The notes under the pieces were generated by a model. It was not told the origin of the DNA and did not search any database. It saw nothing but the letters and a program-made list of their open reading frames with translations. Below are positions 6,076 to 7,297 of a stretch of 12,164 nt of DNA, in pieces (within the stretch, counting starts at the first letter, position 1; each line of letters begins with the position of its first letter). Source of the DNA: a virus (taxonomy: Duplodnaviria; Heunggongvirae; Uroviricota; Caudoviricetes); the IMG/VR virus record IMGVR_UViG_2698536471_000010. The stretch is one strand, 5' to 3'. A program made the position numbers and the translations under genes.

Positions 6076-6503
6076 GACCTTTTCCACCATATAAAGGAAC
6101 AATAAATTCTTTTCTGATAGAGATTTAAATAAAAATACATTATTTTACAAAAAAATAATATCCATTACAAAAACATCCGATTTTTTTATATTCCCGCTCA
6201 TCCTGCTAATTTGTATTACAAAAAAATGAAACAACTTGAACCAAAGTGATACAAAATTAGAAAAGAAAACCCCAGGAAGACAAAGAAGACGATCTTTTTC
6301 AATGAGTTACACTGATTTATTGACTATGATTTTTAGCAAAACAATCGAAAGCAATGTGTACCGAGAAGGTTAAAAGATGGAATGGATAGTTATTGACACA
6401 GTGATATGCCCATCAAGCGGAATAACGTTTTCAACTGTATGGTGTAAAATAAAGTTGATAATCTGGTATCAGTCAGATGTGTTCCTGCCACCCGGAAGTA
6501 TTC

Positions 6504-6527
6504 TCACACCTGTTAACTCAGGTGTGA
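6504..6527 (+). promoter_or_regulatory. Perfect 9-bp stem, 6-nt loop hairpin (TCACACCTG-TTAACT-CAGGTGTGA) overlapping the SD of the downstream small ORF
   Basis: Inverted repeat read directly; the 3' arm contains AGGTG three nt before the ATG at 6530. Confidence 0.3.
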
Positions 6528-6529
6528 TT

Positions 6530-6703
6530 ATGGATAATAAGCTGCTTCCATTAACCATTTACAACGTGACACCATTTAACAGAAAATTCTGGTTCCTTAT
6601 CAGAAATCAAAAAGAGTGCCCCGGGAATTCAGTTAAAACAAAAATAAAATGCCATAATAGTATGTGTGTACTGATGATATGCCCGTATGGATTATATAAG
6701 TAA
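6530..6703 (+). CDS. Hypothetical small Cys-containing protein (57 aa), low-confidence
   Basis: ATG 6530 preceded by AGGTG SD that forms the 3' arm of a perfect 9-bp hairpin (6504-6527). AT-rich codon usage; part of ORF-track 6377..6703. Confidence 0.2.
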
Positions 6704-7205
6704 CAACATATGAATACATAACAGATAAACTATTGACCTTGAGGCTCATCCATATAAAGAAGAGCTCTCCGAAGAGGTGTGTATTTGCATGCACATTCCT
6801 TTTTTGCTCTATGTCATGACCTCCGGCGACTCTATCCCGGCACCAGCAAACCCGCATCATTCTCGTTTCCGGTGTCTCTAAAACCACAGCACACCTGCCC
6901 CCCCGCTGAGGGAGGGAAGCACTGTATCCGTACACTCAGCAACAGAAATACCACCTGCTCACTGCGCTACATATCAGCAACAATTTTATACCCGAACATT
7001 ATCATTCAACAGCATGGTTCACAACAACATCATAACCCAGGAAACGAGAATCAGATCAAAAAAACAGAAATTTTACATGAAAAATACTTTTTATTAATAT
7101 TGATAGCGTCGTACCACAAAATACGATGAATTATCCCTGAACTTAACATTAATGCCAGTATGTATTGCCCGCTGGTATCAGCGGGCGCTTTAAGAGATCG
7201 TATTC

Positions 7206-7289
7206 ATGACTACCTGGGAAAAAGCTATTTTACTATTGTCAGTTTTTATTGCAGCCTTATCTGTCTACTTGCTTCACAGCCTGAACTGA
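7206..7289 (+). CDS. Hypothetical small hydrophobic peptide (27 aa, MTTWEKAILLLSVFIAALSVYLLHSLN), convergent with the methyltransferase
   Basis: ATG 7206, TGA 7287-7289, weak AAGAGA SD; preceded by a perfect 8-bp hairpin (GCCCGCTG-GTAT-CAGCGGGC, 7170-7189). Not in the ORF track (under 60 aa). Confidence 0.2.
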   Translation: MTTWEKAILLLSVFIAALSVYLLHSLN

Positions 7290-7297
7290 CCATATCT

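Follow-up and report, generated by a model that had tools for sequence, protein, structure and literature searches.

The AT-rich stretch at positions 6103-7297 of a 12,164-nucleotide DNA from the Caudoviricetes (the window; IMG/VR record IMGVR_UViG_2698536471_000010) was described in an initial annotation, made from the letters alone, as gene-poor, with only short, oddly composed open reading frames (ORFs) at the position where Shiga toxin (Stx) phages carry stx. I find that this stretch is probably part of a compact prophage cargo (moron) cassette at 6076-7346, the sole clear gene of which is, judged by its sequence, an intact anti-adaptor gene of the IraM/IraL family with a predicted function. 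Two members of this family, IraM of Escherichia coli K-12 (PMC10844676) and IraL of the uropathogenic E. coli (UPEC) strain CFT073 (PMC4045071), have been established by experiment as anti-adaptors of RssB, which block delivery of sigma-S to ClpXP. As the ORF at 6377-6703 belongs to the IraM family, the stretch contains a clean match to a known protein-coding gene, and its description as gene-poor does not survive: the plus strand holds an intact 108-codon gene, which RefSeq names iraM in 28 genomes.

The iraM gene and its predicted product

Located at 6377-6703, the gene is read from the plus strand and so runs antisense to the late genes, and its predicted product of 108 amino acids (aa) scores 144.2 bits against the NCBIfam model NF007393, "anti-adapter protein IraM" (cut-off 121), with residues 1-107 of the 108 covered. 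The same protein aligns to the IraM chain of PDB entry 8twd_A with E = 2e-29 and no gaps across residues 1-77. Its RefSeq record, WP_001443281.1, is named iraM and is annotated in all 28 full-length genome matches (>= 99% identity), and every one of its 26 database homologs is either IraM-named or an unnamed relative. An AlphaFold2 (AF2) model, built with 17 family members, has predicted local distance difference test (pLDDT) values of 74-92 over residues 1-80 (means of 10-residue blocks) and comprises seven strands and a helix at residues 69-77. Foldseek places this model closest to 8twd_A, with a template-modelling (TM) score of 0.89 (target-normalised) and a root-mean-square deviation of 1.2 Å over 77 columns, and the second match is PmrD (4hn7); a structural relationship between IraM and PmrD has been reported (PMC10844676). 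The predicted fold is accordingly the PmrD-like beta-barrel plus helix of IraM, and by sequence and predicted fold taken together the ORF is an intact IraM-family gene.

Selection and residue conservation point the same way. Compared with the closest diverged allele, that of STEC299 (83% aa identity), synonymous divergence (dS) is 0.50 and non-synonymous divergence (dN) 0.089; the dN/dS ratio is 0.18, and the ORF therefore evolves as a functional protein-coding gene under purifying selection. The crystal structure of the IraM-RssB complex (PMC10844676) supplied a list of 15 contact residues, namely clusters I-III and Pro66, at 10 of which the window protein is identical to K-12 IraM, a degree of conservation that fits the IraM family. 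All five residues of cluster I, which K-12 IraM uses on the 4-5-5 face of the RssB receiver domain, are retained, as are two of the five in cluster II (F18, W30), two of the four in cluster III (I61, Y62) and P66, while the five that have changed did so conservatively (T13S, C14S, L75I, H63N, I64V). The protein also keeps all 24 columns that are invariant across 15 diverse family members, four cysteines among them.

These cysteines (C81, C92, C97, C102) and a CPYG motif, invariant in 15 IraM-family members, all lie in the C-terminal tail (residues 81-105), a part of IraM that the structural paper describes as flexible and less conserved (PMC10844676). A metal-binding knuckle in this tail is possible.

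The stx slot in Stx phages and other prophages

The stretch occupies the cargo slot between a methylase gene and nanS-p that Stx2 phages use for transfer RNAs (tRNAs) and stx2AB. On the methylase side, positions 7347-8856 are 91% identical in DNA to Stx2a-converting phages and the homology stops at 7347; on the other side, 3208-6080 (yjhS/nanS-p) are 97% identical and the homology stops at 6080. In the same interval Stx2a phages carry the ileZ-argN-argO tRNAs, stx2A and stx2B, so alignment to Stx phages bears out the earlier placement of the stretch at the stx position. Stx-converting cargo itself (stxA/stxB, usually after tRNAs) is absent even though the flanks match: ARAGORN found no tRNA genes in the window, and its DNA nowhere resembles the stx2AB or tRNA segments of the loci L002 and L003. 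Remnants of tRNAs were considered and rejected, their likeness to tRNA 3' halves being no higher than that of shuffled controls.

Some Stx phages carry a gene of this family in addition to the toxin. The order in Stx2_EH2201 and Stx2a_1447 is methylase, three tRNAs, stx2A, stx2B, a small RNA (sRNA), an antisense 107-aa iraM-like ORF and nanS-p, and this 107-aa ORF of Stx2a phages is called iraM in some records and left unannotated in others, including one RefSeq phage record. Intact copies are found antisense between stx2B and nanS-p at 4880-5203 (minus strand) of L003 and at the equivalent place in NC_049941.1 (L004). In the Stx2c phages and some Stx2a phages (for example 2851, 1717, Stx2a_1447 and Stx2_EH2201) slot and orientation are those of the window (methylase-[cargo]-iraM (antisense)-nanS-p), and the proteins are 61-63% identical to the window protein; these phages, however, retain tRNAs, stx2AB and the sRNA STnc100 between methylase and iraM, all of which the window lacks. 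A tblastn search of 50,697 phage records returned IraM relatives in 46, mostly Stx2c (17) and Stx2/Stx2a phages, and 45 of these are 60-63% identical to the window protein; the weakest of the 46 (41%) is a Salmonella phage fragment. The clade to which the window gene belongs was in none of the 50,697 records.

The gene is more widely spread among prophages. In 80 IMG/VR prophage contigs with an IraM relative, the start of the gene lies nearly always 217-330 nucleotides (nt) from a divergent nanS-p, whereas its distance from the methylase or Q varies from ~320 to ~3900 nt; six of the 80 have stx2B 309-354 nt beyond the 3' end of iraM. These spacings indicate that iraM and nanS-p form a conserved head-to-head pair and that what varies is the cargo separating the methylase from the 3' end of iraM. 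Of 5426 complete E. coli genomes, 28-29 contain the entire block 6076-7346 at 99-100% identity; these are mainly O121:H19, O111, O103 and other non-O157 Shiga toxin-producing (STEC) or enteropathogenic E. coli (EPEC). In 17 IMG/VR contigs the block is equally conserved. Because those 17 combine the near-identical block with nanS-p alleles of 56-100% aa identity and Q alleles of 48-100% (mostly 77%), the cassette appears to be a discrete mosaic module exchanged between lambdoid backbones, its crossover points falling within the final 49 nt of the methylase gene on one side and at the start codon of nanS-p on the other. In strain 2013C-4974 (L001) the cassette is 100% identical, nanS-p (8223-10159) is frameshifted, and an IS3 element replaces the lysis and tail region (11343-12556).

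The window as a whole covers the part of a lambdoid prophage devoted to late regulation and lysis, the late genes being on the minus strand. At the early end lies hokD/sok, where the sok antitoxin RNA (11895-12069, minus strand) is a full-length match to Rfam RF01794 (118 bits) beside a hokD-type toxin gene; in the order of late transcription there follow rem, a DUF968 protein and rusA, a Q-like antiterminator with DUF1133 and Phage_antitermQ domains (8946-9512, minus strand), a 65-aa ORF on the minus strand between Q and the methylase, and the N6/N4 DNA methylase itself (7298-8374, minus strand; Pfam PF01555, E = 5.9e-43), the last 49 nt of which are part of the cassette. Past the cassette, and head-to-head with iraM, stands a nanS-p type 9-O-acetyl sialic acid esterase gene (4138-6075, minus strand; Pfam DUF1737, SASA and DUF6645), an intact ORF of 645-654 aa in the window, followed, according to the annotation of a near-identical genome, by DUF1378, DUF826 and the holin.

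Probable control region, replaced segment and conserved spacer

The GC content of 6103-7297 is 0.37 as against 0.507 for the rest of the window, and the lowest values for any 300-nt segment of the entire 12 kb (0.32-0.33) fall at 6001-6450, so the AT-richness first reported is real. The annotated start of nanS-p in a near-identical genome corresponds to 6075, not 6102, and the true intergenic span is therefore 6076-7297. Its first part, the 301-base-pair (bp) region between the divergent iraM (plus) and nanS-p (minus) genes at 6076-6376 (GC 0.28), probably holds the promoters of both. On the iraM side, four alleles whose proteins are 79-83% identical share a block at 6291-6309 (GATCTTTTTCAATGAGTTA) in which 18 of 19 positions do not vary; a -10-like TATGAT follows at 6325-6330 (TATACT in the other three alleles), and a conserved Shine-Dalgarno-like AGAAGG stands 8 nt before the iraM ATG. 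Homology among the four alleles is limited to the iraM-proximal 100-153 nt upstream of the ATG. The iraM promoter thus likely coincides with the footprint at 6291-6330, which would give a 5' untranslated region (UTR) of ~40 nt; the 5' UTR of iraL is 33 nt, its transcription start site lying 33 nt upstream of the ATG (PMC4045071). No PhoP box with two or fewer mismatches was found in 6076-6376, and matches with three mismatches occur at chance frequency (29 against 28.9 expected in the window). A scan for intrinsic terminators found none in the stretch on either strand.

It is very unlikely that the stretch is in essence the promoter or regulatory region of nanS-p, with iraM incidental to it. 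The AT-rich 301 bp do lie directly upstream of nanS-p and contain a promoter-like site on that side (6170->6142, TTGTAA-17-TAAAAT), and the strongly conserved head-to-head layout suggests a shared control region. However, only 301 of ~1220 bp adjoin nanS-p, the intergenic sequence is not conserved among alleles past the iraM-proximal 100-153 nt, and nanS-p, to go by gene order, sits in the late operon and would be readable from the Q-dependent late promoter. The idea of a nanS-p promoter region, raised in the initial annotation, is therefore correct in that the stretch lies upstream of nanS-p, but the main content of the stretch is iraM on the opposite strand.

Beyond the 3' end of iraM, comparison with STEC299 (L005) reveals a replacement. 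The two are homologous at 7346-7042 (83%) and at 6777-6224 (78%), and between these segments 967 bp of STEC299, comprising tRNA-Thr/Arg/Gly and STnc100, correspond to 264 bp of unrelated sequence in the window (6778-7041, GC 0.49), at the site where relatives have their tRNAs, stx2AB if present, and STnc100. The iraM 3' flank (6704-6777) still holds, at 6751-6777, a decayed terminator of STnc100, the sRNA that precedes iraM in relatives: the region reads CCTCTTCGGAGAGCTCTTCTTTAT in the window and GCCCCTCTCCGGAGGGGCTTT in relatives, and the flank ends CCTCTTCGGAGAG..., in which the STnc100 terminator GCCCCTCTCCGGAGGGGC survives in decayed form. The intact hairpin closes Rfam STnc100 (RF02076) in L002, L003, L005 and L007, which score 141-154 bits, while the remnant in the window is not called as a terminator by the scan.

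No homolog of the 264-bp segment outside the cassette was found in phage records, E. coli genomes (searched in distant mode), the related loci or the protein database; one metagenome contig shares an exact 24-mer with it. The ORFs at 6779-7129 (plus strand, 116 aa) and 6633-6935 (minus strand, 100 aa) have no Pfam or NCBIfam match, nor do two others of 45 and 54 aa, and the database relatives of the 116-aa ORF consist only of the same cassette and a variant of it with a 53-bp deletion (6899-6951). This variant occurs in three contigs (L027, L031 and L099), at least one of which adjoins a different, PF03589-type Q with no methylase gene between. I regard the segment as filler from the replacement that removed the tRNA/(stx)/STnc100 block.

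The view of the stretch as a cargo-exchange remnant, proposed initially, consequently holds in part: the Stx2 phages cease to be homologous at 7347 and 6080, the tRNA/STnc100 block has been replaced and its terminator has decayed, but an intact iraM is present. That the whole stretch is a decaying remnant of former Stx/tRNA cargo, with the iraM-like ORF a silent relic, is improbable. The neighbouring module has certainly decayed, its tRNAs and STnc100 being gone and its terminator degenerate; the iraM copy at this position has become a pseudogene in some prophages of pig and other E. coli (L006, L007), and one carrier genome has a defective prophage in which nanS-p is frameshifted and an IS3 element inserted. 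Against this, the window ORF is intact in every one of the 28 full-length matches among genomes as well as in 17 IMG/VR contigs, it has a dN/dS of 0.18 relative to an allele at dS ~0.5, it keeps most contact residues (10/15) and every family-invariant position, and its upstream footprint and Shine-Dalgarno sequence are conserved.

A small RNA was the other content first suggested for the stretch, and the search with covariance models lends it no support. Rfam yielded nothing at the gathering threshold in the stretch and nothing credible at E <= 1 on 5950-7450 or at E <= 10 on 6690-7060; two snoRNA matches with E = 4-8 were dismissed as chance. A diverged STnc100 or PasD1/2 in the 264-bp segment was likewise rejected, similarity being at the level of shuffled sequence (z <= 2.6) and no covariance-model match appearing at E <= 10. 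With the STnc100/PasD family (RF02076) defined by a covariance-model match, a 5' GCATGGTGAATCC... stem and the GCCCCTCTCCGGAGGGGC terminator at the end, no member lies on 6690-7060, as against 141-154 bits in relatives and 38-41 bits for PasD. Folding of 6704-7045 gave no signal on either strand (z = -0.19 and +0.43), and there was no significant match downstream of nanS-p to PasA/PasC.

In related prophages such RNAs are found at the homologous position. STnc100 reportedly shares part of its sequence span with the Hfq-binding EcOnc27 downstream of stx2B (PMC12711010) and is related to PasD (bioRxiv 10.64898/2026.05.13.724894), and STnc100/EcOnc27 and PasD are located either just past the 3' end of iraM or immediately before nanS-p; the sRNAs themselves are missing from the window, in which ~27 nt of degenerate terminator persist. 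Both STnc100 and PasD start GCATGGTGAATCC...GGGG, and a CACCATG some 65-125 nt downstream pairs with the 5' CATGGTG in the manner of a tRNA acceptor stem. A partial STnc100-type module also stands directly upstream of tRNA-Thr in STEC299. These features (L005 4484-4565 and 5129-5306; L003 4687-4872) suggest that the STnc100-type sRNA either arose from the leader of a tRNA cluster or a pseudo-tRNA or also serves as one.

The remaining 256 bp, the post-methylase spacer at 7042-7297, are common to other prophages (83% identity to L005 and L006, 77% to L007) and have a hairpin and a 27-codon ORF in their core. The hairpin, at 7167-7186, is a perfect one of 8 bp (GCCCGCTG-GTAT-CAGCGGGC) and invariant in four diverged loci, and the fold of 7105-7300 (plus strand) as a whole is not exceptional (z = -0.89). 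The ORF (7206-7289, plus strand), unannotated and hydrophobic, reads MTTWEKAILLLSVFIAALSVYLLHSLN; it is open and of the same length in L005 and L006, alleles 83% identical (MNTWEKAIFLLSVFFVALSVYLLRILN), and absent from L007, which keeps the hairpin. Six of its seven substitutions are non-synonymous and it matches no family, the NCBIfam scan giving only sub-threshold matches of transmembrane type. The product is presumably a single hydrophobic helix that I would liken to peptides of the TisB/DinQ type, which is a lead only. Of the earlier idea that the stretch houses small peptides there thus remains one weak lead, this conserved ORF, though it has no family match.

Could a regulatory RNA or a small peptide, not IraM, be the functional content of the stretch? 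This would be either a new sRNA in the 264-bp segment, taking the place of STnc100/PasD, or the hairpin and 27-codon ORF (7167-7289, plus strand) acting as a membrane peptide or type I toxin-like module, and I think it quite improbable. Relatives do have the Hfq-binding STnc100/EcOnc27 at the homologous place (PMC12711010) and carry PasD directly upstream of nanS-p, conservation is higher in the core at 7140-7297 than around it, and the short ORF stays open, its length unchanged, in alleles 83% identical. On the other hand, 371 nt gave no Rfam match even at E <= 10, with STnc100/PasD similarity at shuffle level, folding z-scores near 0 and no intrinsic terminator; the unique segment has no diverged homolog, hence no basis for covariation, and tolerates a 53-bp deletion; and the ORF, with six of seven substitutions non-synonymous and no family match, is lost in L007 where the hairpin is retained. 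A small membrane-peptide gene formed by the hairpin and ORF beside the methylase is better seen as a more speculative addition to the anti-adaptor reading.

Relation to known anti-adaptors and a possible role in the lysogen

On sequence, the window protein is the ortholog of neither characterised protein. For iraM, strict orthology has been set at >= 95% identity to the K-12 gene (PMC4045071), to which PhoP-dependent induction at low Mg2+ may be added; for iraL I applied the same identity threshold together with the conserved iraL promoter. As a strict ortholog of K-12 iraM the gene was rejected at 54-55% aa identity, with DNA similarity of 65% across only part of the coding sequence (CDS); as one of CFT073 iraL it was rejected at ~60% identity to a 111-aa, IraL-like type, the upstream regions being unalignable beyond the CDS. 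It forms instead its own clade with alleles 77-83% identical to it, and its identity to the Stx2-phage copy is 61-63%. K-12 IraM (YcgW; induced by low Mg2+ via PhoPQ; 8TWD) nonetheless shares with it family, predicted fold, length class, the four C-terminal cysteines and all five contacts to the RssB receiver domain, and K-12 iraM lies at the edge of prophage e14, just as the window copy lies in prophage-derived DNA. The K-12 context is, however, a chromosomal relic whereas the window gene sits in an intact lambdoid late region, and the K-12 upstream region is unrelated to that of the window and has, ~50 nt before the ATG, a PhoP-box-like repeat with two mismatches that the window lacks.

IraL, from UPEC CFT073 and Shigella and active in log phase (PMC4045071), is like the window protein an IraM homolog that has diverged from K-12 in sequence, and in the case of IraL in regulation too. 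The 111-aa type is probably IraL, judging by identity figures only: it has 66 identities to K-12 IraM in 111 aligned columns, which is compatible with the published IraL-IraM identity of 58.9% (PMC4045071). Like the window iraM, this type stands head-to-head with nanS-p or DUF1737 in prophages, and this arrangement recurs in no fewer than 1432 of the 5426 complete E. coli genomes (>= 26%; for example L013 6700-7340), so if it is IraL, the characterised IraL would itself be a prophage late-region moron. The two differ in distribution, iraL being under-represented in enterohaemorrhagic E. coli (EHEC) and STEC (PMC4045071) and the window allele occurring mainly in non-O157 STEC/EPEC genomes.

How might such a gene work in a lysogen? 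Its transcript would arise at a dedicated promoter in the AT-rich region, ~40-90 nt before the ATG, rather than at the Q-dependent late promoter, and its product would, by analogy, bind the adaptor RssB and stop delivery of sigma-S (RpoS) to ClpXP, raising the general stress response of the lysogen. The inducing signal is probably something other than low Mg2+ and PhoP, much as IraL differs from IraM, because no K-12-type PhoP box was detected and the sequence before the gene has no relation to the one before K-12 iraM. Upon prophage induction, antiterminated late transcription would cross iraM antisense and should shut the gene off; the scan detected no terminator between methylase and nanS-p on the late strand. 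I therefore put forward, tentatively and as something that may well prove wrong, that lambdoid prophages of STEC and EPEC, some Stx2 phages included, carry diverged clades of RssB anti-adaptors at the stx slot, and that the window clade is expressed in the lysogen under a non-PhoP signal, raises sigma-S, making carrier lineages such as O121:H19 and O111:H8 more tolerant of stress and acid, and is switched off by antisense transcription on induction.

Several points weigh against an anti-adaptor role of this kind in the lysogen. The protein is distant from both characterised relatives (54-55% and ~60% identity) and differs at three of the five cluster II and two of the four cluster III contacts. 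AT-rich foreign DNA is often silenced, so iraM could be poorly expressed. The C-terminal 27 residues have a pLDDT below 50 in the AF2 model. The promoter is placed by a footprint in four sequences, and a generic sigma-70 scan returned eight sites where 4.8 +/- 2.2 were expected, not a significant excess. The antisense shut-off is something I purely infer. Finally, IraL and IraM bind RssB differently (PMC4045071), and the binding mode, or even the target, could therefore differ here.

The window gene is largely explained as a further clade of a known family and as ordinary prophage cargo, whose position databases already display. The literature searched discusses only chromosomal iraM and iraL, with no mention of phage-borne copies, and several phage records leave the iraM-like ORF unannotated; an "empty" stx slot evidently needs to be read on both strands. 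Some STEC strains have elevated log-phase sigma-S yet lack iraL (PMC4045071), and phage-borne paralogs such as the window iraM would, if the proposal is true, be a candidate explanation. In that case the cargo of some Stx2c and Stx2a phages would combine the toxin with a stress regulator, and carriers of the window cassette include flour- and food-associated O121 and O111 strains. Tolerance of acid, oxidative stress and desiccation depends on the level of RpoS, which also affects how pathogenic E. coli express their virulence genes. Thus, if extra, differently regulated anti-adaptors do reside at the stx slot, STEC and EPEC lineages would have their general stress response tuned directly by the prophages they contain.

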